A DNA stretch of 64,000 bases, taken from NCBI GenBank assembly GCA_937930175.1, contig CALGLP010000011.1:28776-92775 (forward strand). Direction: 5' to 3'. Source of the DNA: an uncultured bacterium (GTDB lineage: Bacteria; Omnitrophota; Gorgyraeia; Zapsychrales; Aceulaceae). A model generated the notes under the pieces. It searched no databases. It was not told the DNA's origin and saw only the letters and a list, made by a program, of their open reading frames with translations. The position numbers were made by a program, and so were the translations under genes. Of the stretch, positions 9,200 through 30,190 are shown one piece after another (position 1 is the first letter of the stretch; each line of letters begins with the position of its first letter).

Positions 9200-9212
9200 C
9201 TTTTCAAAAGCT

Positions 9213-11152: not shown

Positions 11153-11219
11153 TGTTTCTCCCTGTCTAGTTTTTTATAAACACTTTAAATTTTATACGCA
11201 AAACTCGCATCATGCCCTT

Positions 11220-11759
11220 TCAACGGCTAAGCAAGAAATCATTAAACTTAGTCAACGTCTTCGCACCAATACGTCCATCGGGATTTAAGCCATTAGCCTT
11301 CTGAAAATCCTTCACAGCCTTAATCGTCTTAGGCCCTATTTTTCCATCGATCGTTCCTGTATAAAAACCTGACTCCTTGAGAATCTGCTGTACAACGTTT
11401 AAATCAAGCTTGGCCTCTTTCACAAGCCCTGTCGCGGTAACCATATTCAAGGCCGCCCAAGTCTTATCATCAAGAAACCGCGTCACAACTAAGCCTTTAG
11501 CTTCTTGAAACCGTGCGATCGTCTCGCGCATCTTGCCACCAAGCTTGCCATCGATCTTGCCACAGCTAAACCCATTCACAAGAAAAAGCTTCTGGGCATA
11601 TTCCACTCGCTCGTTATACACCGATGGAATGACATCGCCTAAGATTTTCTTTTCCTGCGCGCCTTCTTTTTGCAAGATCCCATAAATAAAGTCGCACCCA
11701 GAACAAAGGCTGAGCACAAGGGCAAAAACAAGTATTTTTCGTATAAACACAACTATCAT
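11220..11759 (-). CDS. Lipoprotein with two peptidoglycan-binding (PG_binding_1-like) repeats
   Basis: Signal peptide plus lipobox-like LCSGC; two repeats GxIDGKxGxKTxxAxxxFQ. Confidence 0.55.
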   Translation of the reverse strand: MIVVFIRKILVFALVLSLCSGCDFIYGILQKEGAQEKKILGDVIPSVYNERVEYAQKLFLVNGFSCGKIDGKLGGKMRETIARFQEAKGLVVTRFLDDKTWAALNMVTATGLVKEAKLDLNVVQQILKESGFYTGTIDGKIGPKTIKAVKDFQKANGLNPDGRIGAKTLTKFNDFLLSR

Positions 11760-11773
11760 TTTAAAACAACATA

Positions 11774-11803
11774 AAGGCCCTTACCTAAAAACGCGTAAGG
11801 GCC
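11774..11803 (-). terminator. Hairpin (9-bp perfect stem GGCCCTTAC/GTAAGGGCC) at the 3' end of the chemosensory operon
   Basis: Lies 25 nt after the stop of the last receiver gene and is followed on the minus-strand RNA by UUAUGUUGUUUU. Confidence 0.4.
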
Positions 11804-11827
11804 ATGCACACTTTAAGAAACCGACCC

Positions 11828-12190
11828 TTAAGCTGTTAATTTTGCGATCGACTCTAAAAGATATTTGAAATCCACTGTTTTCACGGTGAAATCATCGGCT
11901 CCCGCCTGCCTGGCTCGACGAGCATCAACAGCCTCTAATTTTCCAGTATAAATAATGATCTTAAAAGCATCATCTAAATCTTTGATCTGTCTGCACAAAT
12001 CAAACCCATTAGCATCAGGAAGCATGACGTCGAGAATAATCACCTGCGGCTTCATCTTTTCGACCGCCTTCATACCCTCGGCGCCATCTGATGCAAGCCC
12101 AACCTCGTAGCCGGCATTTTCCAATCGCGCCTTTAGAACCTTTTGAATCGATTCTTCATCTTCAATAATCAAGATCTTCTTCTTGTTCAT
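11828..12190 (-). CDS. Single-domain response regulator (receiver)
   Basis: ILIIEDE...ILDVMLPD...K receiver motifs and no output domain. Confidence 0.85.
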   Translation of the reverse strand: MNKKKILIIEDEESIQKVLKARLENAGYEVGLASDGAEGMKAVEKMKPQVIILDVMLPDANGFDLCRQIKDLDDAFKIIIYTGKLEAVDARRARQAGADDFTVKTVDFKYLLESIAKLTA

Positions 12191-12203
12191 ACGTCCACCT
12201 TTG

Positions 12204-12572
12204 TTAATTTAACCATTTCTGAATCTGACCTAACAACTCTTGAAAATCAAAAGGCTTTGCAACATAGCCTTGCGCTCCTGTGGCTGGAAACCTCTCGCTA
12301 AAGCTTCCTGCGGAAACACTCGCCGTCATAAAAATAACAGGAATGTGTTTAAGCGCCGCGTCAATCTTGATGTGTTCACAGACCTCATAGCCATTCATCT
12401 TCGGAAGCGTAATATCAAGCAAAATCAAGTCTGGGTTCATTGTTTTGGCAATCTCTACGCCTTGTTGCCCATCCACAGCCACCTGAACATCATAGCCTTC
12501 TTTTTTAAGCCGAAAGACAACCACCTTGACAATATCAGGTTCATCATCAACAACTAAAATTCTTTTCCCCAT
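12204..12572 (-). CDS. Single-domain response regulator (receiver)
   Basis: ILVVDDEPD...LLDITLP receiver motifs. Confidence 0.85.
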   Translation of the reverse strand: MGKRILVVDDEPDIVKVVVFRLKKEGYDVQVAVDGQQGVEIAKTMNPDLILLDITLPKMNGYEVCEHIKIDAALKHIPVIFMTASVSAGSFSERFPATGAQGYVAKPFDFQELLGQIQKWLN

Positions 12573-12594
12573 GACGCCTCCTCATGTAAAGAGC

Positions 12595-15500
12595 TTACAC
12601 CCGACTTCGTCGTTCCTCAATGGGCAAAAGAAACGAAAACGCACATCCCTTGCCCGGAGCTGACTCCACCCAAATCTTTCCATTGTGTTGTTCAATAATC
12701 TTCTTAGAAATCGCAAGACCAAGACCCGTGCTTCCGGTCTTACGCTCTTTGCCTTTTTTAAGCTGGCTAAAGGTTTGAAAAAGCTTATCCATATCTTCTT
12801 CCTTAATACCATCACCTGAATCAATCACAGCAACCGTCACCGTATTGACCTGCTTCGATGTTTTGATCACAACAGGTTTTCCCGGAGCATATTTAAGCGC
12901 ATTATTCACTAAATTGGTCAAAACTTGCGTAATCCGATCTTTGTCCATTTTAAGCAAAGGAAGGTCTTCGGCCGCTTCGACGCTTAAATTCACGCCTTCT
13001 TTCTCAGCAATTTGCCGCATGGTTGAGGCGACCTCTAGGACGACATCGTTAACATTTTGCTCTGAAAGCTCAAAACTCATATGCTCGGTATCAAGCTTCT
13101 GGAAATCCAACACATCATTGATCAACCGTGACAAGCGATCCACATTACGTTTGGCCACATCGAGAAACTCCTGCTGATCCTTATTAATTTCTCCAGTCAC
13201 GCCGTCGATCACGATCGAAATGCCCTCCTTGATTGCCGTCAAAGGAGTACGTAATTCATGAGACACAACAGAAATAAATTCACTCTTGATGCGCATCGCC
13301 TCCCTGGCTTTTTCTTCATTCGCGCGCTTATCAGTTACATCTTCTTTAATCGCAATAAAATTAATAATATGTCCTTGTTCATCTTTCACCGCAGAAATAG
13401 AAGCCTCTTCATAAAAAAGCTCACCATTTTTCTTTTTATTCGAAAACTCGCCTCTCCACTCCTCCCCGCGCAAGATCGTATCCCATAAATTCTTATAAAA
13501 ATCAGCCGATTGTTCGCCTGACTTTAATACACGTGGATTCTGGCCTATGGCCTCTTGCGCCGTAAAACCTGTGACTTGACAAAACTTTGGATTAACATAC
13601 TCAATATTACCCTTGATATCGGTAATAACAACCGTCGCTGGACTATGTTCAACTGCGCGCGAAAGCCTAAAAAGCTGCTCTTGGGCCTTCTTCATCGCTG
13701 TCATATCGCTACCAATGGAAAGAAGCTCTTTTTCATTAGTCTTTTCATCGAGAACCACTTTGTTTGACCAGCGAACCCAAACACGCCTTCCATTTTTACA
13801 CATATTTTCATTTTCATTAATCTCATAAGCTTTGGGATTCTCAATCACCTGCTGAACCATGGAACGCAAGGCCTTCCCTGCAGAATCAGACTCCGGAATA
13901 ATCGTTCCGATCACATGTTTTCCCAATACCTCTTCCTTCGTGTATCCAAAAAATTTCTCCGCATATTCATTAAAAAAAGTAATATGTCCTTGGCTATCTA
14001 AGCGTAAAATAATGCTATTAGCATTCTCAACTAAATGTCGATACTTTCTTTCACTTTCACTGATTCTTTTCTCTGCTTCAAATCGCTCTGTAACATCTTC
14101 AAAGCTTTCAATGCCGCCCACAATCTTTCCATAATCATCCTTAAAAACGTCAACATTTTTTGAAATAATGCGGATTAGACCCGCCTTGGTTCGAATGGTT
14201 GCTTGCGCAGCAATAATCGGTTTTTCCTTCTTATCATCGTAAAGGCCACATCCTTGCTTGCAAGGTGTTTCGCAAAAAATGAGACATTCCTGACCCAAAA
14301 CCTCAGCCTCGGAGTATCCCGTAATTTCAGCTGCTTTGTTATTCCAGCTTGTGATGCGGCGATCCAAATCTACAGTAAACAACGCGCTGGGAATAACCTT
14401 ATAAATACGTTCGGCAATCTCTTTGCCCTTCAAGATCTCTTTTTGGGAAGCCTCCAGGCGAAGCGACTTGTCCGCAACCTCTTTGTACAAAGCCTTGATA
14501 GCTTCGTTAGTCTTTTCAAGCCCCCAGGCCTTAGCCTTGAGCGCCTCCTCCGTCTCCTTAATCACGCGCTCTGCTTTTTTCTGAGAGGTGATATCGCGGG
14601 CAATCGTGGAAGCACCAATAATGTGTCCCCGGCTATCGCGAATAGGCGATATTGTCAAGGACACATTAATGCGCGTACCATCTTTTTTAAGACGCAACGT
14701 TTGATAATGCTCAACATTCTGGCCATTTTTAATCTTGGCAAGAATATCCATCACCTCCCGCCTACATTCTTCAGGCACGATGATCGCAATCGACTTACCC
14801 AAGATTTCTTTTTCACTGTATCCGTACATCTTTTGCGCACCCTTATTCCAGCTGACAACTATTCCCTTCAGGTCTTTGACAACGATTGCGTCATCGGAAG
14901 ACTCCACCACGGACGCAAGAAGCTGGTTATTTTGATTCGTTTTTTTATTTAAATAAAACACCACAGCAGCTACCCAAAAGAGTCCGCAGGCCAACAGGGT
15001 CATAATAACCCCAAAAAGAACATAAAACTTAATCTTGTCCATGGATCCCAGGTAGAGCACAGTCCAGCCATGAAGATCAATCGGCGCTTGAGAAACAAAA
15101 TACTTCTTTTTATAAAAAATAATTTCTTTTGTCTTTTGCACAGGACCCATCTTAAGCGCGGGAAAAGGTCCTGGCCCAAACTCCTTGGCTTCAATGAGCT
15201 CCTTAACAACTTGTGGCGAAAGGGGTCGGATCGCATGAAAAGCAAAGCTTGGGTTGCTCGCAAAGAAAACAATTCCGTTAGGATCAACCAAAAAACTCTG
15301 AAATGCTTTGCGAAAATTCTCTCTCAAAGTCTCTACCTCTTTCTTAACAACAACAACGCCCAGCACATTGCCGATTTCAGGGCTTCGGACAGCATGCGAA
15401 GAATAGTAGCCTCGCGTTTTTGACGTAACACCTAGGGCAAAATAGCGGCCATTTTTTCCTTCAAGAGCTTCTGTAACATAAGGCCGAAACCGATAATTAT

Positions 15501-15909
15501 GCCCCACCAGGCTATTGGCATCGTTTCTATTGGAAGACGCGATTGTATCCCCTTGCAGATTCAAAATATAACAAATGGAATCCTCTATTCCTTCCGCATA
15601 CCGATCCAAAACCTTATTGGCTGCCTCAAGGGCTAAAGGCTCAGAGGACGTCAGGCTTTCCATCACGCCCGGAGACGTCGATAAAATCTTGCTCACCTTG
15701 TCAACATCTTCCATCATGCGGTTAACATCCGTCGCTAAAATACGAACGGACTGCTCTGCTTTTTCAGCAATCTCATTCCTGCCATGATCAAGAAGGGCAC
15801 GACTTCCCAGGGTTCCACCGATAAGAATAAGCAAAAAAAAGATCACGCAAAGAAAAATCTGCTTAAACGAAAAAAGTCTTGCAAATCCCGGTTGCCGCGT
15901 TGTAGGCAT
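12595..15909 (-). CDS. Large sensor histidine kinase: periplasmic sensor domain between two TM helices, then multiple PAS domains, HisKA, HATPase_c
   Basis: H-box SHELRTPLTAIKEG; N/G boxes LVNNALKYAP...DSGDGI...GLGLAISKKI. Several PAS-like segments are present (for example the repeated LGKxxxxIxPE pattern). Confidence 0.85.
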   Translation of the reverse strand: MPTTRQPGFARLFSFKQIFLCVIFFLLILIGGTLGSRALLDHGRNEIAEKAEQSVRILATDVNRMMEDVDKVSKILSTSPGVMESLTSSEPLALEAANKVLDRYAEGIEDSICYILNLQGDTIASSNRNDANSLVGHNYRFRPYVTEALEGKNGRYFALGVTSKTRGYYSSHAVRSPEIGNVLGVVVVKKEVETLRENFRKAFQSFLVDPNGIVFFASNPSFAFHAIRPLSPQVVKELIEAKEFGPGPFPALKMGPVQKTKEIIFYKKKYFVSQAPIDLHGWTVLYLGSMDKIKFYVLFGVIMTLLACGLFWVAAVVFYLNKKTNQNNQLLASVVESSDDAIVVKDLKGIVVSWNKGAQKMYGYSEKEILGKSIAIIVPEECRREVMDILAKIKNGQNVEHYQTLRLKKDGTRINVSLTISPIRDSRGHIIGASTIARDITSQKKAERVIKETEEALKAKAWGLEKTNEAIKALYKEVADKSLRLEASQKEILKGKEIAERIYKVIPSALFTVDLDRRITSWNNKAAEITGYSEAEVLGQECLIFCETPCKQGCGLYDDKKEKPIIAAQATIRTKAGLIRIISKNVDVFKDDYGKIVGGIESFEDVTERFEAEKRISESERKYRHLVENANSIILRLDSQGHITFFNEYAEKFFGYTKEEVLGKHVIGTIIPESDSAGKALRSMVQQVIENPKAYEINENENMCKNGRRVWVRWSNKVVLDEKTNEKELLSIGSDMTAMKKAQEQLFRLSRAVEHSPATVVITDIKGNIEYVNPKFCQVTGFTAQEAIGQNPRVLKSGEQSADFYKNLWDTILRGEEWRGEFSNKKKNGELFYEEASISAVKDEQGHIINFIAIKEDVTDKRANEEKAREAMRIKSEFISVVSHELRTPLTAIKEGISIVIDGVTGEINKDQQEFLDVAKRNVDRLSRLINDVLDFQKLDTEHMSFELSEQNVNDVVLEVASTMRQIAEKEGVNLSVEAAEDLPLLKMDKDRITQVLTNLVNNALKYAPGKPVVIKTSKQVNTVTVAVIDSGDGIKEEDMDKLFQTFSQLKKGKERKTGSTGLGLAISKKIIEQHNGKIWVESAPGKGCAFSFLLPIEERRSRV

Positions 15910-15959
15910 AGAGCTATTTCCTCTTTTTATATTTTAATATTCTTAAAACAACAAATTCT

Positions 15960-16328
15960 CTAAACAAGCTTTGCGAGCGAATCCACGATATTGACAATGT
16001 CACTCGTCTTCGCGCAATAATCATCCGCCCCGGCCTCCCTGGCCCTTGTAGCATCGATGGCATCGACGCTACCGGTCATAACAATAATCTTAAGAGCCGC
16101 GGCGTCATACATTGCTCTTATCGCCCGGCAGGCCTCAAACCCATTCATCCCTGGCAATAACGTGTCAATAATAGCCGCATCAAATTGCTGCTCTTTGGCT
16201 TTTGCAACACCGCTTTCCCCGGTTTCTGCTGTTACGACTTCATATCCTGCATCACTAAGCGTATCTTTAAAAATATTTAAGACCAGCGGACTGTCCTCAA
16301 TGATTAAAACTTTCTTGGCCATCCCCAT
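15960..16328 (-). CDS. Single-domain response regulator (receiver)
   Basis: VLIIEDSPL...IIDTLLPGMNG receiver motifs. Confidence 0.85.
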   Translation of the reverse strand: MGMAKKVLIIEDSPLVLNIFKDTLSDAGYEVVTAETGESGVAKAKEQQFDAAIIDTLLPGMNGFEACRAIRAMYDAAALKIIVMTGSVDAIDATRAREAGADDYCAKTSDIVNIVDSLAKLV

Positions 16329-16333
16329 CTCCT

Positions 16334-17380
16334 TTATGCTGAAACGAGATTAATCAATTCCTGCCCAATTTTCTCTAACGCCAACACCTTATCGACACAC
16401 TGACAATCAATCGCGGATTTATTCATCCCAAAAACAACCGAACTCGCCTCATCCTGGGCTAAGGCTTGCCCGCCGCAGCGCTTAATCTGCTTCATCCCTT
16501 CAACGCCATCATGACCCATGCCGGTCATCAAAAGCCCAATGGCCCGCGTCCCATAGCTTTCTGCAACAGACTTAAATAAAACATCTGCCGAAGGAACTAA
16601 AAAAACTTTCTTTTCTGTTTCCTCTCTGAGCTCAATCACGCCCTCGGGAGTAATCGTCATGTGAACATTGTCTGGGGCTAAATACACGTATCCATTCCTT
16701 AAGACATCTCCACTGCCCGGAACCTTGATCGTTAATGGACATATCTGCTGGAGCCATTCGGCCAAACCCTGAATAAATCCAGCCGACATATGCTGAACAA
16801 TCAAGATCCCCGCAGGAAAATCTTTAGGCAATTGCGATAAAAGCACGTGCAGGGCCTGAGGCCCTCCCGTCGAAATCCCGATCGCGACAACACGGCTCAA
16901 GGCCTTGTCGTCAACCCTTCTTTCGCCTTGAAACGAGACAGTCTTCTTGAGTTCCAGAACTTTAGCACTAACGGCTGCTTGACGCATCAAGCGCATCGGC
17001 CGAACACGCGAGGCAATGGTTACTTTTTCAATAAGACTTGCTGAAATCTCTTCGATATTATCACTCACCACAACAAAATCCATGGCTCCAATGGCCAGCG
17101 CCTTAACAACAACCTTAGGATCCATACCGCTGACAACAATAATCGACGTGGGAACTTCTGACATGATCAACTGCGTGGCCTCGAGTCCGTTCATGACCGG
17201 CATATTGATATCGATGGTGATCACATCTGGCTTCAAGATTTTTGCTTTTTCTAAACCTTCTTGGCCATTTTTGGCCAAACCAACGACTTCAACCTTTTCA
17301 TCAGACGTCAGAATTGCCCGCAGGGCTTCCCGCATCAGGGCTGAATCATCAATGATAAGAACGCGTATTTTCTTTTCCAT
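16334..17380 (-). CDS. cheB: Chemotaxis response regulator protein-glutamate methylesterase
   Basis: N-terminal receiver (VLIIDDSALMRE) and C-terminal CheB methylesterase (AIGISTGGPQAL...ILIVQHM). Confidence 0.9.
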   Translation of the reverse strand: MEKKIRVLIIDDSALMREALRAILTSDEKVEVVGLAKNGQEGLEKAKILKPDVITIDINMPVMNGLEATQLIMSEVPTSIIVVSGMDPKVVVKALAIGAMDFVVVSDNIEEISASLIEKVTIASRVRPMRLMRQAAVSAKVLELKKTVSFQGERRVDDKALSRVVAIGISTGGPQALHVLLSQLPKDFPAGILIVQHMSAGFIQGLAEWLQQICPLTIKVPGSGDVLRNGYVYLAPDNVHMTITPEGVIELREETEKKVFLVPSADVLFKSVAESYGTRAIGLLMTGMGHDGVEGMKQIKRCGGQALAQDEASSVVFGMNKSAIDCQCVDKVLALEKIGQELINLVSA

Positions 17381-17397
17381 AAAAATGATATCTTTTT

Positions 17398-17772
17398 CTA
17401 GCTACGAAGACCCAAATATAATTTAATTTTCTTGATAAGAAATTCAGGATACGGCGGCTTCACCACATAATCATCCGCGCCTTGACGGAAGGCCTCGCTG
17501 ATAATCTCCACGTCACTTTTAATGCTCAAAACAACAACAATCGTATTTTTTAAGATTGCATCCTTTTTAATCTTCGCGCAAACCTCAAATCCTGAGATAT
17601 CAGGCAGAATCAAATCAAGGATAATAAGATCCGGCATCATCGCACGGGCTTGCAACAAACCCTCCTTACCAGTCGTGGCCACTTCCGCGACAAGGCCTTC
17701 CGCTTTCAGTAAATCTTTGACGATCTGTGCATCGGTTTTCGAATCTTCAATTAAAAGAATTTTCTTGCTCAT
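17398..17772 (-). CDS. cheY: CheY-like response regulator
   Basis: ILLIEDSKTDAQ...IILDLILPDISG; a single receiver domain. Confidence 0.85.
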   Translation of the reverse strand: MSKKILLIEDSKTDAQIVKDLLKAEGLVAEVATTGKEGLLQARAMMPDLIILDLILPDISGFEVCAKIKKDAILKNTIVVVLSIKSDVEIISEAFRQGADDYVVKPPYPEFLIKKIKLYLGLRS

Positions 17773-17789
17773 AAAAGCTCCCGTTTCGT

Positions 17790-19916
17790 TTAGCCCAACA
17801 ACCGTTCAATGGTTTCTAAAAGACCTTCCGAGGTAAAATCTTTCTTTAAAATATAGGCGTCGGCGCCCACTTCAAGCCCGCGGCGCTTGTCCTCATCGGT
17901 TTCACGTGTCGTTACAATCATAACCGGAATCTCTTTATAAAAAGGAATCTTTCGAAGGCTTGCCACAAAATCAAATCCATCCATGCGCGGCATGAGAACA
18001 TCCGTGATAATCAAATCAAAGCTTTCTTGGTTCGCCCGATCTAAGGCCTCTTTCCCGTCACGCGCAATCACAACCGAAAACCCAGCAGCCTCGAGAATGC
18101 TTTTTTCAAGCATCGCCGTGCTCAAAACATCTTCGGCCAAGAGAACCGTTTTTTTCTTGCCCTTCACTAAAGCTTTTGGGGGCGCGGAAGGTTTTTTGAT
18201 CACAACGCCCTCCGCCGAACGAATCACAGACGCGATATCAAGGATAAGAATAACGCGGCCATTGCCTAAAATCGTGGCTCCGGAAATGTTGCTAACATTT
18301 TTTAAAGGATCGCCAATGGCCTTGCTAATAATATCCTGACGACCAATGAGTTCGTCAACTAAGATGCCAATTCTTTTTTCCACAGACTGAACGACAACCA
18401 CAGGAAGAAATCTTTTCTCGAAAATGCCTTTTCGCGGCAGATTAAAAATATCGCTTAAGCGCACCAATGGCAAAATATGGCCCTTCACGGTAATGGCTTC
18501 CTTGGTTTCTATTGTTTTAATTGCGCTAGGGTCAACGCGCAGGGTTTCCATCACTGTTTCGATCGGAATAGCAAAAATATCTGTGCCCGCGGCAACGAGC
18601 AAGCTTTCCGCAATGGCAAGCGTTAAAGGAAGTCTCAAAAGAAAACTTGTACCCAGTCCTGGCTTTGACTTAACCTCCACCATTCCCTTGTATTCAGCAA
18701 TGTGATCACGTACCACGTCCAACCCAACGCCACGGCCGGAAGTCTCAGAAACTTCATCGGTCGTTGTAAAGCCAGGTGCAAAAAGAATCTGATAAATTTG
18801 ATCATCCACCATATCACTCAAACGCTCTTGGGCGACAAACCCCTGAGCCACAGCCCTTTCTTTGACCTTGTCAATATTCACCCCATGGCCGTCATCAGCA
18901 ACCTCAATCACAACCCGAGAGCCTTCTCTGTATGCGGATAGCGTAATTTTTCCTTCAATAGGTTTTCCCTTTTCTTGGCGCGCTTGCGGCATCTCAATCC
19001 CGTGATCAACAGCGTTACGCAAAAGATGCATGATCGGGTCTTTCATGTGGTCAATAATCGCCTTGTCGATTTGCGTGTCTTCACCATGGATTTCAAACCG
19101 AATTTCCTTGCCCTTGGTGCGCGCTAAGTCACGCATCGCCCGTGAAAAATGATTAAAAAGATAGGAAACCGGTACCAAGCGAATCTTCATGACTTCATCT
19201 TGAAGGCTCTTGCTAAGCCGATCCATATTATTCTTGATCATATTAAAATCTTTGGTAAGGCCTCCCAGGTTTTCATCTAATTCTTTATTACCTTCGACCT
19301 TATCATTAAGACTTTGCACTAATTCATTCAAGCGAATCTTGCCAACAATCATTTCCCCGGTCAAGTTCATCAGCCGATTAAGCTTATCAATATCCACACG
19401 GATGCTTTCTTCAACGGCGGACTGAAGCGCTGAGGATTTTTGCGACACGTCAACAACTTCTTTTTCAATCCCTTGGGATCCTTGCGCAGGCTGCGGCACG
19501 GCCTGAGGGGCCTGACTTGGCGCGTGGGAAAAAAGATTCTTAACCTCTTCACAAAGATTAGAAACCGAAGAAGCTTCAATGCCTTTATCTGACCATGTTA
19601 CTTTGTCATCTAAAAGCGGCTCAATAGCATCCAAACATTTAAATAAAAGATCAACTTGTTCTTTGGAAAGGCTTAGATTTTCCTTGAGAACTTTTTCAAA
19701 AGCATCTTCCATGACATGGGCCAGATCTACAATACGCTTATAGCCCATCATGGTCGCTGAGCCCTTAATCGTATGCGTCTTGCGCATCAAAAGTTCGGCC
19801 AGGCTTCGGTCGTGCGGATTTTTTTCCAATTGCAAAAGCCCTGCACTGGTTTCCTGCAACAGATCCCTGACTTCTGCCTTAAAACTTTCAATATATTTTG
19901 ATCGATCAAACGCCAT
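17790..19916 (-). CDS. cheA: Chemotaxis histidine kinase CheA with C-terminal receiver (CheA-REC hybrid)
   Basis: Hpt (HTIKGSATMMGY), HATPase (GRGVGLDVV), CheW-like domain and a terminal receiver (VLLAEDVLSTAML...IITDVLMPRMDG). Confidence 0.9.
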   Translation of the reverse strand: MAFDRSKYIESFKAEVRDLLQETSAGLLQLEKNPHDRSLAELLMRKTHTIKGSATMMGYKRIVDLAHVMEDAFEKVLKENLSLSKEQVDLLFKCLDAIEPLLDDKVTWSDKGIEASSVSNLCEEVKNLFSHAPSQAPQAVPQPAQGSQGIEKEVVDVSQKSSALQSAVEESIRVDIDKLNRLMNLTGEMIVGKIRLNELVQSLNDKVEGNKELDENLGGLTKDFNMIKNNMDRLSKSLQDEVMKIRLVPVSYLFNHFSRAMRDLARTKGKEIRFEIHGEDTQIDKAIIDHMKDPIMHLLRNAVDHGIEMPQARQEKGKPIEGKITLSAYREGSRVVIEVADDGHGVNIDKVKERAVAQGFVAQERLSDMVDDQIYQILFAPGFTTTDEVSETSGRGVGLDVVRDHIAEYKGMVEVKSKPGLGTSFLLRLPLTLAIAESLLVAAGTDIFAIPIETVMETLRVDPSAIKTIETKEAITVKGHILPLVRLSDIFNLPRKGIFEKRFLPVVVVQSVEKRIGILVDELIGRQDIISKAIGDPLKNVSNISGATILGNGRVILILDIASVIRSAEGVVIKKPSAPPKALVKGKKKTVLLAEDVLSTAMLEKSILEAAGFSVVIARDGKEALDRANQESFDLIITDVLMPRMDGFDFVASLRKIPFYKEIPVMIVTTRETDEDKRRGLEVGADAYILKKDFTSEGLLETIERLLG

Positions 19917-19927
19917 AGCGAACTTCT

Positions 19928-21343
19928 TTATTTGAGCTGATTGGCTAAATGATTAAGGCCTTCCGTTAACTTATTGAGATCTTTAACCGCCTGCTGTGTT
20001 TGCTGAGCCCCTAACACAATTTGTTTCATCGCCTCGTCGATATTCATCATGGCCTCGGAAATTTGTTTGGAACCGGCAATCTGCTGATTAGCACTCATGG
20101 CGATTTCCTTGGAACGTTCCGCGGTTTGCTGAGCCAAGCGCGCTTCATCATCAACACTTTTAAGATTTCCTTCCATGGCCATAACAGAATTCGTCATCTC
20201 ATGCTGGATCAACTCGATCAAGCTGCTGATTTCTTTGGTGGATTTGGCTGTTGAATCAGAAAGCTTTCTAATCTCGTCAGCCACCACCGTAAATCCTCGC
20301 CCCTGGTCGCCAGCACGGGCGGCTTCAATCGAAGCGTTCACAGCCAAGAGATTCGTTTGATCTGCGACATCATCAATCATATCGGTAATCTTTCCGATCT
20401 TCTGGGATTTCTCGCCAAGCGACGACACCATTTGATTGGTTCGACCAAGCGATTCCTTGATTTTCGCCATGCCCGCTAACGCATGGGCCGCCACCTCGGA
20501 AACCTTGCGAATACTTTCCCCTACCTGCTCGGAGGTTGTAGAAAGCTCTTTGGCCGCCGACGTGGTCTCGGCGACAGCTGAGGATTGTTCACGCGCCCCA
20601 GAAGATTGTTCCTGGCTCGCCGCTACAATTTCGGCTGAGGCAGAAGTGATTTGTTGCACAGAATTGATAAGTGTTTTAATCGCCTGCGTGAGAATGCGTA
20701 AAACAAAAAACGCCACAAATGCTCCTAGCACAATGGCGATGAGTAAAAGGATCACCATGAGATTCCTGGTCGTTTCTTCGATGACATGGGCTTTCGCAAC
20801 ATACTCTTCAAAGATTTTATGTCCTTCGCCTCTAATGTTGTTCACAAGAGGTTTGATTAGGGCAGCGGTTTTGACAAAATCGGTCGTGTCCGCTCCCAGC
20901 ACATCATCATTGGCTGTTGGATTTTTTTCCACATCATCAACAGCACTTAAAACCTGGGCAACATAACGATCAAATGTTTCTTCTATCTTTTCGACTTCAA
21001 TTGTTTCTGCTTTCATCCTATCTAGCTGTGCCTTAATCGCCTTGATCCACTGCAAAGCCTTTTTGGCCTCTTCAGCGCTTACTTTAAAACGAGCATTAAT
21101 ATATTCCTCTTTGGCCGCCTCTACGCCTTTGATCGAATACCGTAAAATAAAATCCTTTTCTCCAGTACGGCAACTTAAGAAGGCAACCAAGAGATCTTGG
21201 CTTGCATCGACTAAGGCTGCTCCTTTTTTCTCAGCATCTTCCCAGCTTTGATTAATTTGATTAATATTCATAATGGCAACAGCGCCCAGAGCCAATACGA
21301 TGAACAACATTAAAACAAACCCAATCAAAATTTTCTTTTTCAT
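19928..21343 (-). CDS. Methyl-accepting chemotaxis protein (membrane-anchored, HAMP + MCP signalling domain)
   Basis: Highly conserved MCP core IEAARAGDQGRGFTVVADEIRKLSDSTAKSTKEIS. Confidence 0.9.
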   Translation of the reverse strand: MKKKILIGFVLMLFIVLALGAVAIMNINQINQSWEDAEKKGAALVDASQDLLVAFLSCRTGEKDFILRYSIKGVEAAKEEYINARFKVSAEEAKKALQWIKAIKAQLDRMKAETIEVEKIEETFDRYVAQVLSAVDDVEKNPTANDDVLGADTTDFVKTAALIKPLVNNIRGEGHKIFEEYVAKAHVIEETTRNLMVILLLIAIVLGAFVAFFVLRILTQAIKTLINSVQQITSASAEIVAASQEQSSGAREQSSAVAETTSAAKELSTTSEQVGESIRKVSEVAAHALAGMAKIKESLGRTNQMVSSLGEKSQKIGKITDMIDDVADQTNLLAVNASIEAARAGDQGRGFTVVADEIRKLSDSTAKSTKEISSLIELIQHEMTNSVMAMEGNLKSVDDEARLAQQTAERSKEIAMSANQQIAGSKQISEAMMNIDEAMKQIVLGAQQTQQAVKDLNKLTEGLNHLANQLK

Positions 21344-21390
21344 TCTCTCCTCCTAAAGATTAGATAGATTATTCCCCTCGACGCAAATCC

Positions 21391-21915
21391 TTACCCTTTT
21401 TTTAAATGCTCCATTTCCTCACACGTTAAAATCTTTTTAAGATCTAAAAAAATAAGGATCTCCCCTCCTACCTGTGCCTGGCCCCGCGTGTACTGAGACA
21501 TCTTGGTGCCAAGCGTTGCTAAAGGCGGCTGAATCAAGCGCTCCTCAATATCTATGGCTCCCTTAACCTCATCAACAAGAAGAGCCATCGGCGCTCCCAA
21601 AACATCTGTGACAAGCGCCCAAAGCTCCTTAGGGCGTTCACTAGCATCAAGGGTTAAAAAAGAGCAAAGATCGCATAGCGTGATGACCTCGCCACGTAAA
21701 TTCATAACACCCAGAACAAAGTTGGGCACACCCGGAACATGGGTGACGTGCTCGACCTTAATCACTTCTTTAGCATCCTTGATATCCACACAATACTGTT
21801 CCTGCCCAACGAAAAAGACCAAAACACGCATATACGCTGTCAACGAAATCTCATCGTCATTTTCTAGGTCATCGACTTCAAAAATAATTTTCTTAGAATC
21901 CTCTGTCATGCACAC
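21391..21915 (-). CDS. cheW: CheW-like coupling protein
   Basis: CheW-domain pattern (VVFFVGQEQYCVDI...VMNLRGEVITLCDL). Confidence 0.8.
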   Translation of the reverse strand: MCMTEDSKKIIFEVDDLENDDEISLTAYMRVLVFFVGQEQYCVDIKDAKEVIKVEHVTHVPGVPNFVLGVMNLRGEVITLCDLCSFLTLDASERPKELWALVTDVLGAPMALLVDEVKGAIDIEERLIQPPLATLGTKMSQYTRGQAQVGGEILIFLDLKKILTCEEMEHLKKG

Positions 21916-22376
21916 GCCCTCTTTCGTATCTCGACGCGTTCACGAATATGATCTAAATCAACTTTCGCCTCATGGCTCAAAAGGCTTTGCATATCAATGA
22001 CTAAAAAAATATCATTGCTCTTTCTCAAAACCCCCAGCAAATAGCTGACATTCTTCAAAACGTCATCGGGTGGAGTAATCTGGCTGTCCTCTAGCGTCAA
22101 CACATCTAAAACGCTATCCACGATCACACCCACAAAATAGGTGTCAAGCCTGCAGACAATAATACGACTGGTTTTCGTGACGAAGCCCGCGGACAAAGAA
22201 AATTTTTTCCGTAAATTAATCAAAGGGATAATCTTGCCCCGAAGACTGATAACCCCTTCTACAAAATCCGCTGTCTCTGGGACCGGCGTCGGTGGGCGCA
22301 TGGCAATCACCCGCAAAACTTGATCAATTTTCAAGCCATAATGTTTATCGGCAAGAGTAAAGGTAAGTATTTTCAT
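21906..22376 (-). CDS. cheW: CheW-like coupling protein (second copy)
   Basis: LTFTLADKHYGLKI...VISLRGKIIPLINL; 10-nt overlap with the downstream cheW. Confidence 0.8.
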   Translation of the reverse strand: MKILTFTLADKHYGLKIDQVLRVIAMRPPTPVPETADFVEGVISLRGKIIPLINLRKKFSLSAGFVTKTSRIIVCRLDTYFVGVIVDSVLDVLTLEDSQITPPDDVLKNVSYLLGVLRKSNDIFLVIDMQSLLSHEAKVDLDHIRERVEIRKRACA

Positions 22377-22384
22377 GGACGTGA

Positions 22385-23896
22385 TTATACCTGCTTGAGT
22401 CTTTCTAGGTTATCCCGGCAAACGCTCATCAGCGTGGCTGCGTTGAACCCGCCACTGTAGGCTATTATAGTTGTCGGCTCATATCCTGACAACAGCTTTA
22501 GCGAGTTTCTGTAGGCCCGGATAGCCTCGGATGTCTGCGTTTCGCTTCGATAAACCTGAGCAAGATAGAAATGAGCCAACAAAAATGTCTGATCGAGAAA
22601 AAGAGCCTTGCGCAAGCTTTCTTTGGCCTCGCGCAGCATGTTTTCCTCAAAATAAATGCAGCCAAACAGGTAGTGCGCCGGGGCAAAAAGAGCATTGAGA
22701 CTCAAGGCTTTATGAAGACTTTCTTTGGCTTCGGCCATTTTTCCCTGATTCATAAAAATCTCTGCTTGCATATAAAGCGGGTCGGCAGCTCTTTCATCAA
22801 GACGCTGGGCCTCCTCAAGTAAGGAAAGAGCTTCAGCATATTCCTTAAGATACATGTGCTTGTGCGATTGAAAAAGCAAATCTTCAAGACTTCTTAAGGA
22901 AGCACTCGTTTTTGCAAAAGCCGCCACCTGCGCCAAGGCCTCTTGATGAGAAATTTCTTCAAGGATACTATTGGCATCAAGAGTTTCTTCTTCTGCCACA
23001 GACGTTCTTTGTTGCGTAGAGAACACCTTTTGCATGCCCAAAACTTTCTTCTGATAATAAATAGCTTCTTGGCTACTGATCATCTGAAACTGATCACGCA
23101 TAAAATGCAAACTCTCCGAATAACCAATAAAGAGGTGCCCCTCGTCTAAAAGAGCGTTATAAAACTTGCGCATCACCTTGATCGTTGTTTCCAATTCAAA
23201 ATAAATGACCACATTACGACAAAAAATAATATCAAAACCAAAAGGATAATCGTCTTCCATGAGGTTGAAGAAGCCAAAGCTCACCATGCGCTTTATCTCA
23301 TCGCTAACTTGATAAAAAGATTGCTTGTATTCTCCGGGCTTAACCGTGAAATATTTCTGCAAATAAGGTGCTGCAACGTAGCGCACAGCATTTTTGCTAT
23401 AAAGCCCTTTTTGGGCTTGCCGAAGGGCATTTTCAGAGGCATCCGTGGCTAGAATTTCAATCTCCCAGCCATCAAGGTCACCTAAAACCTCCTTGATCAC
23501 CATCGCAATGGTGTAGGGCTCCTCGCCAGAGGAACACCCCGCGCTCCAAATGCGTAGCTTCGGCTTGGTCCCATCGCGCAAAGCCATTTTTGTTTTTTCT
23601 TCGATTAAAACAGGTAAAACTTTTTCCTTGAGGACTTCAAAGTGAGCTTCATTGCGAAAAAAATACGTGTGGTTGATCGTCAGCAGGTTGAGCAGTTCAC
23701 GAAACTCATCATCTCGCTCATCCGAAGTCGTAAGAAAAGCATAGTAGGAGGCAACAGCGGCCATGCCGCGTATTTTCATGCGCTCAACAATAGCATCGTC
23801 GAGATTCTTAAGGTCATGGTCCTTAAAATACAATCCGCCGCGGCTGCAGACGAAATCCTTGAATTTTATGCGAAGCTCATTGGGGAAAATCATCAA
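22385..23896 (-). CDS. cheR: Chemotaxis methyltransferase CheR with C-terminal TPR repeats (FrzF/WspC-like architecture)
   Basis: SAM-binding LRIWSAGCSSGEEPYTIAM; the C-terminal third has TPR-like repeats (AEAKESLHKALSLNALFAPAHYLFGCIYF...). Confidence 0.85.
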   Translation of the reverse strand: MMIFPNELRIKFKDFVCSRGGLYFKDHDLKNLDDAIVERMKIRGMAAVASYYAFLTTSDERDDEFRELLNLLTINHTYFFRNEAHFEVLKEKVLPVLIEEKTKMALRDGTKPKLRIWSAGCSSGEEPYTIAMVIKEVLGDLDGWEIEILATDASENALRQAQKGLYSKNAVRYVAAPYLQKYFTVKPGEYKQSFYQVSDEIKRMVSFGFFNLMEDDYPFGFDIIFCRNVVIYFELETTIKVMRKFYNALLDEGHLFIGYSESLHFMRDQFQMISSQEAIYYQKKVLGMQKVFSTQQRTSVAEEETLDANSILEEISHQEALAQVAAFAKTSASLRSLEDLLFQSHKHMYLKEYAEALSLLEEAQRLDERAADPLYMQAEIFMNQGKMAEAKESLHKALSLNALFAPAHYLFGCIYFEENMLREAKESLRKALFLDQTFLLAHFYLAQVYRSETQTSEAIRAYRNSLKLLSGYEPTTIIAYSGGFNAATLMSVCRDNLERLKQV

Positions 23897-23919
23897 TAAA
23901 TTATTGAAAATAGTAGGTT

Positions 23920-26112
23920 TTAGGAACGCCGCTTGAGCAGCATGCGAATTCGGGCAAGCAACTTTTCGGGATCAAAGGGCTTGCTCACATAATCATCGGC
24001 CCCGGCATCCAGGGCTTCAATTTCGCTAGCGCTATCAGTCTTGGCTGTCAACATCACAACAGGAATGGAAGCCGTTTCTAAAGAATTCTTTATCTTTCGC
24101 GTTGCACTCACCCCATCTAAAATAGGCATCATAATATCCATCATAATAAGATGGGGCTTCTTCTGATACGCAGCTTTGATGCCCTGCTCTCCATCCGCTG
24201 CCTCAAGAACCTCATAGCCTTCTTTAAGCAGTCGTGCCCGCAGAACCTTTCGGATGTCGTCTTCATCATCCACAACAAGAATAGTAAATCGTTTGTTCAG
24301 GGCGCGCTGCAAATCACCTGTAATGGCAGCTGCTTCTTGTTGTTCTTCTGGCGTAGACACCGACGAGACTTCTCTCTCAGGCTCTTTCATTTCTGTGTCT
24401 CTTACATCGCAAACAGTTTCTACCTCTTCAATCGTAGTTAATCCTTCGAGAACCTTACGAATACCAGATTCTGCCAATGATCGCATCCCATTAACACGGG
24501 CCACCTTCAGCATCTCGGCCTGGGGAGCCTTCTGGGCAATAAGCGTACGCAGTTGTTCATCAACTTTAACTATTTCACTAATCACGGTTCGCCCCAAGAA
24601 GCCCGTATAGCAACACCGATCGCATCCCTTGCCAAAAAAGAATTGAGTAATCTTGTTCTGCTGGATAAAAAGCCCAAACTTTTCATAAAGCTCTTGTTTT
24701 TGCTTCTGATCTGTCACCTCCAGCTTGCAATAAGGACAAATCGTACGTACCAAGCGCTGCGCCAAAATCAAGATGACAGACGAGGCAATCAAATAAGGCT
24801 CCAGACCAATATCCATCAGACGAACAACTGTAGCCAAAGCATGATTAGTATGAACCGAAGAAAAAACAAGGTGACCGGTTAACGAAGCGCGAAAAGCAAT
24901 CTCCGCTGTTTCAAGATCACGAATTTCTCCAACTAAAATAACGTTAGGATCTTGACGCAGAATACTTCTTAATCCTGTAGCAAAGGTAACGTCTTTAAAA
25001 GGGTTGACTTGAATTTGATTAATTCCTTGCATCAAATACTCAACGGGATCTTCAATGGTCACAATATTCTTTGTTTCACTCTTAATATGACTTAAGGCTG
25101 CATAGAGTGTTGAAGTTTTCCCTGAGCCCGTAGGCCCTGTCACTAAAATCATACCCTGAGGCTTACGGATCATCTGCTTGATCAAAGCAAGATCATCCTC
25201 GTAAAACCCAAGATGCTCGAGCTCCACCTGAGCCTCTTTTTTATCTAAAAGGCGCAAAACGATTTTCTCGCCAAAAAAGGTAGGAATAATCGAAATGCGC
25301 AAATCAACCTTACGTCCGTTAACCAAAAGACTGCATCGTCCATCTTGGGCTTTATGCGTCTCCGCAATATCCAAATTCGTAAGAATCTTGATGCGGACAC
25401 CCAAATTGGAATACAAACCAATTGGGATTTTCATAATATTGCGCAAATTACCATCAACACGGTAGCGTACCTCAACAAACTTTTCAAAAGGTTCAATATG
25501 AATATCACTAGCGCGAGCACGAATAGCATCATAAAGAATCGCATTGCCCAGCTTCACAACCGGAGAATGGTCCTCAAGTCCGGCTGCAGAAAGACTATGC
25601 ATCTTCTTGGCATCAATAATTTCATTATCTTTGATGATTTCGATCTTCGCCTGATCTGTGACATTTTTCATCAAATCATAGATCGAGTCGTCCAAGAGAT
25701 AATAGCGTTCAATGTAGCTTGCGATCTCACTCTTGCGAACCAACAAAGGCTTGATCTTGGCATGAACCAACATGCTCAAATGATCAAGCGCAATAACATC
25801 CTGAGGGTTACTCATAGCCAGAAGAAGGCTACCGCTTTCATAGCGCAGAGGAAAAACACCGTACTGCTTGGCTTTGTCGCTAGGAATTTCTTTAACAATC
25901 GCTTCATCAATTTTTTCTACGGAAAGGTTAGTTACAGGAATTTTATAAACTTCAGAAGCTGTCTGAATAAGATCTTCTTCACTTAAAAATTCCATTTCTA
26001 CAAGAAGCTCATGTAAAGGCTTTTTAGCTCCGATTTGTTTTATCTTCGCGTCTTCAATGTTATCTTGTGTAATAAGATTTTTCTTTAATAGCACATCCAA
26101 CAATGTGGTCAT
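23920..26112 (-). CDS. GspE/PilB-family secretion/pilus ATPase fused to a C-terminal receiver domain
   Basis: N-terminal T2SSE_N-like domain, Walker A LVTGPTGSGKTST, tetracysteine CPYC...CDRCC, then a receiver ILVVDDEDDIRKV...IMMDIMMPILDG...MLTAKTD...K. Confidence 0.85.
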   Translation of the reverse strand: MTTLLDVLLKKNLITQDNIEDAKIKQIGAKKPLHELLVEMEFLSEEDLIQTASEVYKIPVTNLSVEKIDEAIVKEIPSDKAKQYGVFPLRYESGSLLLAMSNPQDVIALDHLSMLVHAKIKPLLVRKSEIASYIERYYLLDDSIYDLMKNVTDQAKIEIIKDNEIIDAKKMHSLSAAGLEDHSPVVKLGNAILYDAIRARASDIHIEPFEKFVEVRYRVDGNLRNIMKIPIGLYSNLGVRIKILTNLDIAETHKAQDGRCSLLVNGRKVDLRISIIPTFFGEKIVLRLLDKKEAQVELEHLGFYEDDLALIKQMIRKPQGMILVTGPTGSGKTSTLYAALSHIKSETKNIVTIEDPVEYLMQGINQIQVNPFKDVTFATGLRSILRQDPNVILVGEIRDLETAEIAFRASLTGHLVFSSVHTNHALATVVRLMDIGLEPYLIASSVILILAQRLVRTICPYCKLEVTDQKQKQELYEKFGLFIQQNKITQFFFGKGCDRCCYTGFLGRTVISEIVKVDEQLRTLIAQKAPQAEMLKVARVNGMRSLAESGIRKVLEGLTTIEEVETVCDVRDTEMKEPEREVSSVSTPEEQQEAAAITGDLQRALNKRFTILVVDDEDDIRKVLRARLLKEGYEVLEAADGEQGIKAAYQKKPHLIMMDIMMPILDGVSATRKIKNSLETASIPVVMLTAKTDSASEIEALDAGADDYVSKPFDPEKLLARIRMLLKRRS

Positions 26113-26168: not shown

Positions 26169-26196
26169 ATTGTACAACGAAAGAGTGCTCTTGCAA
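26169..26196 (-). promoter_or_regulatory. Candidate sigma70-type promoter of the chemosensory operon (TTGCAA, 16-nt spacer, TACAAT)
   Basis: On the minus strand: TTGCAA (26191-26196), 16 nt, TACAAT (complement of 26169-26174). AAGGAAG RBS about 10 nt before ATG at 26112. Confidence 0.35.
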
Positions 26197-26223: not shown

Positions 26224-27720
26224 TTAGACGCGCTGGTTATCTTTCGTTAGTTTTAAAAGTTGCTTGGCAAGCAAGGTTGTTGCTTGATCAGGTAAAAGAC
26301 GCCACTGCCAATTATGGTCAACGGTTCCTGGAATATTCATGCGGTGGGCTTCATCAAGACCTAAAAGGTCCTGCATGGGCAAAATCACTGCATCCGCAAC
26401 AGACCTAAGAGCGAGAGTAACAAGCTGCCAAGAAATATTATCAAGTGTTGGTTCCTGGCCCAAAACGTCCCTCATCTTTTGCTTGATCGTATCTGTCGCT
26501 TCCTGCTTAAACCAGCCCTTAACAGTATTGTTATCATGAGTGCCTGTGTAAACAATGCAGTTTTTGATATGGTTGTGGGGCAAATAAGGATTTTCATCGT
26601 CGCTATCAAAGGCGAAAAGCAAGATTTTCATTCCTGGAAACTTATATTTTTTGATAAGTTCTTTGACATCATCGGTTAAAAAACCGAGATCCTCAGCGAT
26701 AATCGGGAACTCTTTAAAAATTTTAAGCATTTTGGTGAAGAAATCTTTGGCGGGTGCTTCCGCCCAAGACCCATTGATAGCTGTTTCTTCACCCCTAGGA
26801 ACTTGCCAAAAATTAACAAAGCCACGAAAATGATCGACACGAACAATATCAAAAAGGGCTAAATTCTGCGCCAAGCGATCCCTCCACCAAGCATAGCCAG
26901 TTTCTTTCAAGGCATCCCAATCATACACAGGATTGCCCCAAAGTTGCCCGGTCTTGCTAAAATAATCCGGAGGAACTCCCGCTAAGAAAATAAGCCCGCC
27001 TTCTTCATCGAGCTTAAAGATCGAAGGATTCGCCCAAACATCCACACTGTCATGCTGAACATAAATCGGAAGGTCACCAATCACCTCAACGCCCCTAGCT
27101 TTACCATATTTCTTGAGTGCAAACCATTGCTTAAAGAAAACATATTGAAAAAACTTTTGCTTAAGAATAGGCGCCTGAAGCTCTTTTACATATTTTTTAA
27201 CAGCCTCGGGCTTTCTAGCGCGAATATCTTGCGGCCAGCGATACCACGGAGAACCTTGAAAATACTGCTTGAGGGCAATGAAAAGGCTATAATCCTCAAG
27301 CCAAAATTCATTTTTACGACAGAACGCCTTAAAATCAGCGTCCTTGACTAAAAAGCCTTGCGCATGCGCAAAGGCCTGATCCAGAAGGCCCGTCTTATAA
27401 GAAATCACCGCGTGATAATTCACGTGGTCGTCGGGAAAAGAGGGCATCTTCTTTACCGCATCCGCCGGAAGAAAACCATCTTCCACTAACTTCTCGGGAC
27501 TAATAAAAAGAATGTTACTAGCAAACGCAGAACAACTGCTATAAGGACAATTCCCCAAAGCAATATCCGTTGGGTTCAGAGGCAATATCTGCCACTGCGA
27601 CTGCCCAGCATTTTTAAGAAAATCAATAAATTGGTATGCACCTTGCCCCAGATCCCCAATCCCAAAAGGAGATGGTAAGGAGCTAATGTGCAAAAGAACG
27701 CCACTTGTTCGTCGATCCAT
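26224..27720 (-). CDS. malQ: 4-alpha-glucanotransferase (amylomaltase, GH77)
   Basis: N-terminal GVLLHISSLPSPFGIGDLG and GH77-typical length and motifs. Confidence 0.85.
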   Translation of the reverse strand: MDRRTSGVLLHISSLPSPFGIGDLGQGAYQFIDFLKNAGQSQWQILPLNPTDIALGNCPYSSCSAFASNILFISPEKLVEDGFLPADAVKKMPSFPDDHVNYHAVISYKTGLLDQAFAHAQGFLVKDADFKAFCRKNEFWLEDYSLFIALKQYFQGSPWYRWPQDIRARKPEAVKKYVKELQAPILKQKFFQYVFFKQWFALKKYGKARGVEVIGDLPIYVQHDSVDVWANPSIFKLDEEGGLIFLAGVPPDYFSKTGQLWGNPVYDWDALKETGYAWWRDRLAQNLALFDIVRVDHFRGFVNFWQVPRGEETAINGSWAEAPAKDFFTKMLKIFKEFPIIAEDLGFLTDDVKELIKKYKFPGMKILLFAFDSDDENPYLPHNHIKNCIVYTGTHDNNTVKGWFKQEATDTIKQKMRDVLGQEPTLDNISWQLVTLALRSVADAVILPMQDLLGLDEAHRMNIPGTVDHNWQWRLLPDQATTLLAKQLLKLTKDNQRV

Positions 27721-27730
27721 AAAACCTCCT

Positions 27731-30175: not shown

Positions 30176-30190
30176 TTTTAACAGCAGCGA

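Follow-up and report, generated by a model that had tools for sequence, protein, structure and literature searches.

A PilB-like ATPase with a C-terminal receiver domain heads a composite two-component and chemosensory operon in an Omnitrophota bacterium

How chemotaxis-like and two-component pathways reach the motor of the type IV pilus (T4P) has been argued case by case, with PilG/PilH, FimX, PATAN regulators and Frz as the examples. PilG and PilH act in the Pil-Chp pathway (PMC11656802, PMC12632253), and PATAN regulators carrying a receiver domain (REC) bind PilB1 in Synechocystis (bioRxiv 10.1101/2021.06.11.447907). We describe here 12 co-directional, minus-strand open reading frames (ORFs) at positions 11828-26112 of a 64-kb stretch of DNA from an Omnitrophota bacterium (contig CALGLP010000011.1); the whole stretch is called the window. 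The first gene encodes a PilB-like ATPase with a receiver fused to its C terminus, which we call PilB-REC. We divide the operon into module A, PilB-REC itself (gene 1), module B, a cassette of eight che genes (g2-g9), and module C, a dCache/PAS sensor kinase (g10) with two receivers (g11 and g12).

Pil-Chp of Pseudomonas aeruginosa and the cyanobacterial Tax/Pix and Hmp systems are chemotaxis-like pathways coupled to the T4P machinery, and the Che family of the cassette likewise abuts pilB-pilC in one relative. In Pil-Chp and Tax/Pix, however, free CheY-like regulators act on the motor, whereas here the receiver is covalently fused to the ATPase, whose conserved partner is a sensor kinase of the HisKA type instead of CheA. 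Unlike the multi-Hpt ChpA of Pil-Chp, the CheA of gene 6 has one Hpt domain, which sets it apart from the Tfp class. Unlike Tax/Pix, no PATAN domain was detected, and g7, g9, g11 and g12 give only Response_reg matches.

In domain make-up the cassette resembles Frz of Myxococcus xanthus and Wsp of Pseudomonas, with a CheA-REC having a single Hpt, a CheR with C-terminal TPR repeats, two CheW-type couplers, a CheB and no nearby flagellar genes. Frz also controls T4P-dependent motility. Unlike the cytoplasmic FrzCD, the methyl-accepting chemotaxis protein (MCP) of the cassette has two transmembrane segments and a periplasmic domain, and the FrzZ-type dual receiver of Frz has no counterpart in the cassette. 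Unlike Wsp, none of the 12 proteins contains a GGDEF domain, so an output of the WspR (REC-GGDEF) type was not found. The gene order differs from that of both systems, and the cassette lies inside a two-component operon headed by a receiver-fused ATPase.

Fusions of a small-signal input domain to an ATPase built of MshEN and T2SSE domains have been catalogued. Supplementary Table 4 of PMC5013675 lists REC-MshEN-T2SSE (Geobacter metallireducens Gmet_3473), GAF-MshEN-T2SSE and MshEN-T2SSE-cNMPbind, all uncharacterised. PilB-REC is of the same general kind, but in the catalogued fusions the receiver is N-terminal and the hosts are proteobacteria, whereas here it is C-terminal and follows the Zn-binding domain and an acidic linker, an order that is not among the entries of that table. 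Vibrio cholerae MshE and M. xanthus PilB, which are regulated by cyclic di-GMP (c-di-GMP), share the same MshEN and ATPase body; unlike them, PilB-REC has degenerate c-di-GMP motifs and its predicted input is phosphorylation. We found no characterised PilB/GspE-receiver fusion in the literature, only catalogue entries. A 2024 review of PilB regulation (PMC11656802) does not describe a receiver-fused PilB, and PMC10066038, on which we draw for the biology of Omnitrophota, mentions neither chemotaxis nor a PilB-REC ATPase. Judged from sequence, the system would be a variation on known pilus-control signalling.

Gene 1 (23920-26112; 730 amino acids) contains, by Pfam, MshEN at residues 56-142, T2SSE at 180-565 (2e-129), an acidic linker of about 40 residues and REC at 611-723. 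Its best matches in the PDB are full-length PilB structures of the type IVa pilus (T4aP) of Geobacter (5zfr/5tsg; E ~1e-135 to 1e-133). Similarity to the T4aP PilB proteins of Geobacter and Myxococcus extends over the full length (E ~1e-135 to 1e-126), and the PDB matches to GspE are confined to residues 179-567. PilB (TIGR02538) is also the best NCBIfam family, over residues 4-567; gene 1 does not classify as GspE, and no gsp genes lie near it. The protein has the features expected of PilB, namely an N-terminal MshEN and an ATPase core with Walker A, Walker B, His box and tetracysteine Zn site. GPTGSGKT, DPNVILVGEIRD, the His box and the Zn-binding C459/C462/C497/C500 are invariant in 25 PilB-REC homologs, mostly from Omnitrophota, over which the invariance and c-di-GMP motif counts were all taken. 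With about 41-44% identity to the REC-less canonical PilBs of Omnitrophota, PilB-REC is, by its sequence, an extra PilB paralog.

The fused receiver (23944-24282) carries the complete residue set of a response regulator: acid pocket, acceptor Asp, Thr/Ser and Lys. D615, D616, D659, T689 and K711 align to CheY D12, D13, D57, T87 and K109 and are invariant in the homologs; their codons lie at 24265-24270 (D615/D616), 24136-24138 (D659), 24046-24048 (T689) and 23980-23982 (K711). The phospho-acceptor-site residues are intact in the other receivers of the cluster too, except that the alignment does not resolve the Lys column of CheB. Setting its orthologs aside, the fused receiver is most similar to stand-alone receivers of the g11 type (41-42%). 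In a neighbour-joining tree without support values it groups with the kinase-module receivers and not with the CheY-like g7, g9 and g12, and in the PDB and NCBIfam it is closest to PleD/PhoB-type receivers, not CheY. These similarities point, suggestively only, to kinase module C over CheA as its partner.

For c-di-GMP binding, the motif tested was two tandem 24-residue copies of RLGxx(L/V/I)(L/V/I)xxG(L/V/I)(L/V/I)xxxxLxxxLxxQ, or the relaxed pattern of PMC5013675. In the window protein the two 24-residue motifs have both degenerated (TLLDVLLKKNLI... and PLHELLVEMEFL...), and neither the strict nor the relaxed pattern was matched by any of the 25 PilB-REC proteins. As a control, the canonical Omnitrophota PilB of L048 (L-numbers are labels of related loci or contigs) keeps both motif copies under the relaxed pattern, at positions 8 and 37 and with the right spacing. 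The motif thus predicts that c-di-GMP binding was lost across the PilB-REC family, and we infer that the family may have swapped a c-di-GMP input for a phosphorylation input.

The gene neighbourhoods of PilB-REC relatives identify the probable source of that phosphorylation. Of the ten PilB-REC lineages sampled, eight lack che genes there (L087, L093/L094, L084, L089, L088, L085, L086 and L004), and in all eight, all of them Omnitrophota, a HisKA sensor kinase comes directly or within three genes after PilB-REC. In five (L087, L093/L094, L084, L089 and L088, with ATPases respectively 81, 82, 75, 74 and 60% identical to that of the window, the last from Ca. Aceula lacicola) the orthologous dCache/PAS kinase and two receivers directly follow PilB-REC, and the neighbouring genes match those of the window, on either side as far as the contig goes. 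Kinase identities of 75, 64, 63 and 55% track ATPase identities of 81, 74, 75 and 60%. At L085, L086 and L004 (46-51% ATPase identity), PilB-REC is followed by other HisKA sensor kinases and receivers. Lone receiver genes lie directly upstream of PilB-REC in L085, L088 and L090. Because the che-less lineages keep a kinase, the conserved kinase partner of the ATPase receiver appears to be the module C HisKA kinase, not CheA.

The chemosensory cassette (15960-23896) was seen between modules A and C only in the window and in L090, a contig reached via its CheA. L090 has the same 12-gene order, A-B-C, with Che proteins 45-65% identical to those of the window and flanking A and C proteins 55-58% identical. 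Judged by the identity of its ATPase, L090 groups as sister to L088 (76%), which has no che genes, and the window's own clade is otherwise che-less among its sampled members. Since L090 has the same order with equally diverged genes, the A-B-C arrangement is old and module B is variably present. The cassette was either cleanly lost several times or exchanged among relatives through recombination spanning the genes of A and C. The chemosensory array appears to be a dispensable, accessory second input, kept in some lineages and absent at the locus in most.

A recent horizontal insertion specific to the window genome was considered and rejected, as it does not fit the equally diverged arrangement of L090. 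Nor is the cassette marked as foreign by base composition, its GC content being 0.451 and that of the flanking modules 0.427 and 0.434. No direct repeats or remnants were found at either cassette junction, nor at the ATPase-kinase junction of cassette-less relatives, the intergenic spacers being clean and 15-37 nt long. In L086, PilB-REC and its kinase are preceded by a GATase_7 gene (8466-9953) and followed by one for a mechanosensitive channel (21419-22097), and the same pair flanks a Che cassette with a REC-kinase in L165 (3533-4981 and 14511-15428); PilB-REC with its kinase and the Che cassette may have corresponding places on the chromosome in different lineages.

The link between this Che family and the pilus does not rest on the fusion alone, because in L163, an Omnitrophota contig whose CheA is 60% identical to the window's, the family is translationally coupled to a full pilB-pilC-pilin-pilM operon. 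The genes there, all on one strand, run PAS kinase, REC, REC, CheR-TPR, CheW, CheW, a 251-residue gene, MCP, CheA-REC, CheB, REC, REC, PilB (without receiver), PilC, pilins and PilM, and from CheA through the first pilin gene they abut or overlap. The triad of a PilB-type ATPase, the Che family and a PAS kinase with two receivers therefore recurs, in L090 with its order kept and in L163 with a different one. Among the stand-alone receivers closer to the fused one is REC13496, which belongs to the pair immediately before the L163 PilB. The product of the 251-residue gene (L163:7770-8525), which follows the second CheW and precedes the MCP, is similar to the periplasmic N-terminal half of the window MCP (28% identity over residues 1-225) and may be a split or duplicated sensor module.

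The same Che family also occurs with no PilB-type gene within its 10-kb flanks, in L091, where the cassette is followed by a CHASE kinase with a GGDEF domain, and in L164 and L165, where a REC-kinase is present. T4aP genes are found in nearly all Omnitrophota genomes, with a proposed role in host attachment (PMC10066038). The pilus locus of L048 comprises PilM, PilO, secretin, REC-less PilB, PilC and pilins, and that of L018 two REC-less PilB genes, PilC, pilin and PilM. A fused Memo-AMMECR1 gene adjoins both of these canonical loci (L048:15509-16987, L018:7026-8519) and is also present a few kb from the Che cassette in L164 (17658-19271) and L165 (19914-21536), so that a pilus locus may lie just beyond the stretch covered in those two contigs.

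We suggest, with a probability of about one half, that this is a composite operon controlling a T4P-type motor ATPase by phosphorylation, made up of a conserved two-component core and a nested, optional Che cassette. The core would consist of the dCache/4-PAS membrane kinase g10, the receivers g11 and g12 and the PilB paralog with its complete receiver; the Frz/Wsp-type cassette, nested between ATPase and kinase, would be a dispensable second input. Periplasmic and cytoplasmic signals at the dCache/PAS kinase would set the phosphorylation state of Asp659, which would be phosphorylated mainly by that kinase and possibly by CheA too, with the adapting MCP-CheA array contributing where the cassette is present. 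On its acidic tether of about 40 residues, the receiver could then change how active the ATPase hexamer is or how it docks on a pilus platform whose genes lie elsewhere, taking the regulatory place that c-di-GMP holds in other PilB/MshE proteins. The four free receivers might serve as phosphate sinks or as adaptors that bind the motor.

A more far-reaching proposal, which we offer only tentatively, is that PilB-REC is a pilus extension motor that is itself the response regulator. Asp659 would be shared by the dCache/PAS kinase and, where the cassette is present, by an adapting chemoreceptor-CheA array, and extension would be gated at the ATPase with no intermediary, in replacement of c-di-GMP.

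Several observations weigh against control of a pilus motor by phosphorylation. The score of gene 1 against PilB TIGR02538 (595.3 bits) is below the family cutoff of 675.65, and that against GspE TIGR02533 (561.9 bits) is below the cutoff of 630.25. No pilus platform, pilin or secretin genes were found beside PilB-REC in any locus examined, the window included. Because other Omnitrophota pilus loci own a REC-less PilB, PilB-REC may not act on a T4a pilus at all. The loss of c-di-GMP binding is a prediction from the motif, the pairing of kinase and receiver is drawn from gene neighbourhood and a neighbour-joining tree that carries no support values, and the sample is small, with ten PilB-REC lineages and five Che context types.

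The preliminary description of this DNA took CheA for the primary kinase, passing phosphate straight to the fused receiver and making the motor ATPase the output of the Che pathway. The cassette does lie nested right after the ATPase and before the remaining genes, all at gaps of 5-50 nt, a nesting kept in L090 at about 57-62% protein identity, and its Che family is joined to a pilB-pilC operon in L163. The acceptor Asp of the gene 1 receiver is intact, and the contention that the ATPase is the only plausible output in the operon held up, since the cluster encodes no other enzymatic effector apart from CheB. However, eight of the ten PilB-REC lineages lack che at the locus yet always have a HisKA kinase, so the receiver has a kinase partner without CheA; the fused receiver stands apart from the CheY-like g7, g9 and g12; and in L091, L164 and L165 the cassette has no PilB-type gene in its 10-kb flanks. 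Of the proposal that the array directly phospho-regulates the ATPase, the intact receiver and the Che-pilus coupling of L163 are in favour, whereas the conserved partner appears to be the kinase and not Che. Direct phospho-regulation by the array is thus a possible but less parsimonious reading, and we regard CheA as an unlikely primary kinase. The same description had named two findings that would tell against it: a complete pilus locus with its own canonical ATPase, which relatives do have (L048, L018 and L163), and a receiver without its acceptor Asp, which is not the case, Asp659 being present and invariant in the 25 homologs.

A composite operon acting on a pilus motor must also be set against the idea that PilB-REC is a diverged orphan paralog and not a pilus extension motor, powering some other secretion or fibre system or acting as a phosphorylation-controlled signalling ATPase, possibly with a link to alpha-glucan or glycogen. 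Such a role would agree with the separation of PilB-REC from pilC, pilM and pilin genes in the loci examined, with its scores under the equivalog cutoffs for both PilB and GspE, and with the separate PilB owned by the canonical pilus loci of the phylum. Glycogen-related genes lie immediately upstream of PilB-REC in three lineages; GH57-GH77 genes are upstream in both close clades, with GH77 overlapping the ATPase start in L084 and L089, and a glycogen phosphorylase gene is upstream in L085. A precedent for a signalling ATPase is reported in PMC5544727, according to which M. xanthus PilB regulates exopolysaccharide. We nevertheless consider an orphan role improbable: similarity to T4aP PilB extends over the full length, N-terminal domain included, all ATPase motifs are conserved, the associated Che family is tied to a pilus operon in L163, and no alternative platform genes are nearby. 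That the ATPase, Che and kinase modules are independent of one another and merely adjacent seems very remote. The cassette is dispensable at the locus, and signalling genes often cluster in such genomes, as in the row of many receivers and kinases in L085, but the triad recurs in L163 and L090, a kinase accompanies the ATPase in every Omnitrophota lineage sampled, and the gene spacing is tight or overlapping.

The layout of the operon itself is as first described, with twelve genes on one strand separated by 5-50 nt or overlapping. From g1 to g12 the intergenic distances are 23, 8, -10, 47, 11, 17, 17, 5, 50, 22 and 13 nt, the single overlap being that of g3 and g4. Pfam annotation of all twelve proteins confirmed every domain named in the preliminary description, and its assignment of the Che genes to the alternative-cellular-function type, made on CheR-TPR and CheA-REC, is borne out by domain make-up, with a single Hpt, two CheW, CheB and no flagellar context. 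Its hairpin was likewise recovered, as a terminator-like structure on the minus strand at 11774-11803 in which a perfect stem of 9 bp (GGCCCTTAC/GTAAGGGCC) closes a loop of 10 nt and has a T-rich tail, folding at -18 kcal/mol (z = -2.8). The promoter fared less well. A sigma-70-like candidate, TTGCAA-16-TACAAT (9/12 matches), does exist on the minus strand at 26169-26196, in the 111-nt gap after a GH77 gene, but it is weak evidence because such sites are not enriched around the operon over shuffled sequence (23 observed vs 24.6 expected). As the GH77 gene overlaps the ATPase start codon in two relatives, L084 and L089, the 5' boundary of the operon is uncertain.

All genes of the cassette and of module C are on the minus strand and were assigned by Pfam, the single-domain receivers g7, g9, g11 and g12 also by receiver alignment. 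Gene 2 (22385-23896) encodes a CheR methyltransferase with C-terminal TPR repeats, gene 3 (21906-22376) a CheW and gene 4 (21391-21915) a second CheW, which has a GTG start and overlaps gene 3 by 10 nt. Gene 5 (19928-21343) is a transmembrane MCP (MCPsignal) in which two hydrophobic segments (residues 5-23 and 197-215) flank some 170 residues of periplasmic domain, and it has no HAMP match in Pfam. Gene 6 (17790-19916) is a hybrid CheA with Hpt, dimerisation, HATPase, CheW and REC domains, in which the sole Hpt match is at residues 8-98 and no P2 domain was detected. Gene 7 (17398-17772) is a CheY-like receiver and gene 8 (16334-17380) a CheB composed of REC and CheB_methylest; gene 9 (15960-16328), a receiver, travels with the Che cassette and has orthologs in L090 and L091. 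In module C, gene 10 (12595-15909) encodes a membrane sensor histidine kinase of 1104 residues with dCache_1, four PAS domains, HisKA and HATPase_c, and has orthologs at 55-75% identity. Its dCache domain is periplasmic, between hydrophobic segments at residues 12-30 and 299-317, and it is not a hybrid kinase. Gene 11 (12204-12572) is the closest stand-alone relative of the ATPase-fused receiver (41%), and gene 12 (11828-12190) is the last receiver of the operon.

A protein identical to gene 1 is present in the metagenome-assembled genome (MAG) GCA_036722365.1. Named homologs with 49-75% identity come mostly from Candidatus Omnitrophota (Aceula, Tantalella and others), with a few from Elusimicrobia and Firestonebacteria. 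T2SSE and REC were present in all of the 120 matches listed, and MshEN in all except one 535-residue entry; one MAG each of Deltaproteobacteria and Frankiaceae shares the MshEN-T2SSE-REC architecture. When genome contigs were scanned with Walker-type patterns from an alignment of PilB-REC proteins, the matches listed included fusions in at least L004, L005 and L043 besides ordinary PilB, a result from which no frequencies can be derived. A metagenome scan with a single PilB-REC protein gave one close lineage (L092-L094), the other matches being receiver-only, and a search of a representative library with residues 481-730 gave a ranking dominated by multi-receiver proteins, from which family size is not derivable. 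The L004 homolog (9407-12295) is 962 residues long, with some 250 residues before MshEN that have no Pfam match, and a 2073-residue ORF lies a few genes upstream.

In L092, L093 and L094 (e.g. L093:1448-3635), the PilB-REC ortholog, 82% identical, has a frameshift near residue 200, within a CGCGCGCGC run. Its gene has 5 nt fewer than that of the window, which fits a 2-nt deletion at the run, and the called protein has only 535 residues. The frameshift was seen in all three metagenome assemblies, which are of related samples; true loss of the gene as a pseudogene, a slipped-strand phase switch and an assembly error that recurs could each account for it.

Screening the ORFs of at least 150 amino acids in the rest of the window with Pfam revealed no pilus or flagellar structural genes, in line with what had first been reported; seven of these ORFs had no Pfam match. 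Elsewhere the window carries genes for transporters, for envelope glycans and for the metabolism of glycogen and polyphosphate. Genes for storage polymers occupy 26224-32537 and 33654-39434. Those for alpha-glucan and glycogen (GH77 MalQ, GH57, GlgB-like) are immediately upstream of PilB-REC in both close clades (also L084, L088, L089 and L090). In the distant L085 a glycogen phosphorylase gene lies upstream of a REC and PilB-REC pair. Polyphosphate genes (PPK, CHAD, PPX-like) are found further upstream of the operon, and the recurrence of such neighbours suggests that storage-polymer metabolism may be linked to the signalling operon.

Downstream of the operon are genes for a GAF-GAF-ANTAR regulator of the RNA-binding antiterminator type and a DUF2148 ferredoxin-domain protein (5597-6838 and 7426-7950). 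Both occur at matching positions in L084 and L089, and L087 has the DUF2148 gene. At 45386-58618 the window contains a low-GC (0.36-0.40), strongly AT-skewed block with two paralogous pairs of proteins of about 700 residues, each with 10-13 predicted hydrophobic segments. One pair (45386-47602 with 48562-50805) has YfhO-like C-termini and the other (52494-54599 with 54688-56787) has no Pfam match. Two TPR proteins, a B12-radical SAM enzyme and a GT2 glycosyltransferase are encoded there as well, and the block has the look of an island for envelope glycans.

A natural fusion of receiver and PilB is a 'Rosetta stone' that points to receiver-to-motor contact as the regulatory step, and it offers a single polypeptide for biochemical and structural study of phosphorylation-dependent control of the PilB hexamer. 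Together with the natural series of loci with and without Che, the fusion allows a direct in vitro test of the route by which phospho-signalling arrives at the motor. The patchy Che cassette in an otherwise syntenic operon is, in addition, a clean natural case of an entire chemosensory pathway being gained or lost as a module. The Omnitrophota have not been cultivated, are mostly ultra-small and probably depend on hosts, and a sensory system that gates the pilus, if it is one, would provide a handle on how these bacteria find or hold their hosts. Should the motor itself prove to be the response regulator, this would amount to chemotaxis-like, adapting control of host or surface attachment in host-dependent nanobacteria.

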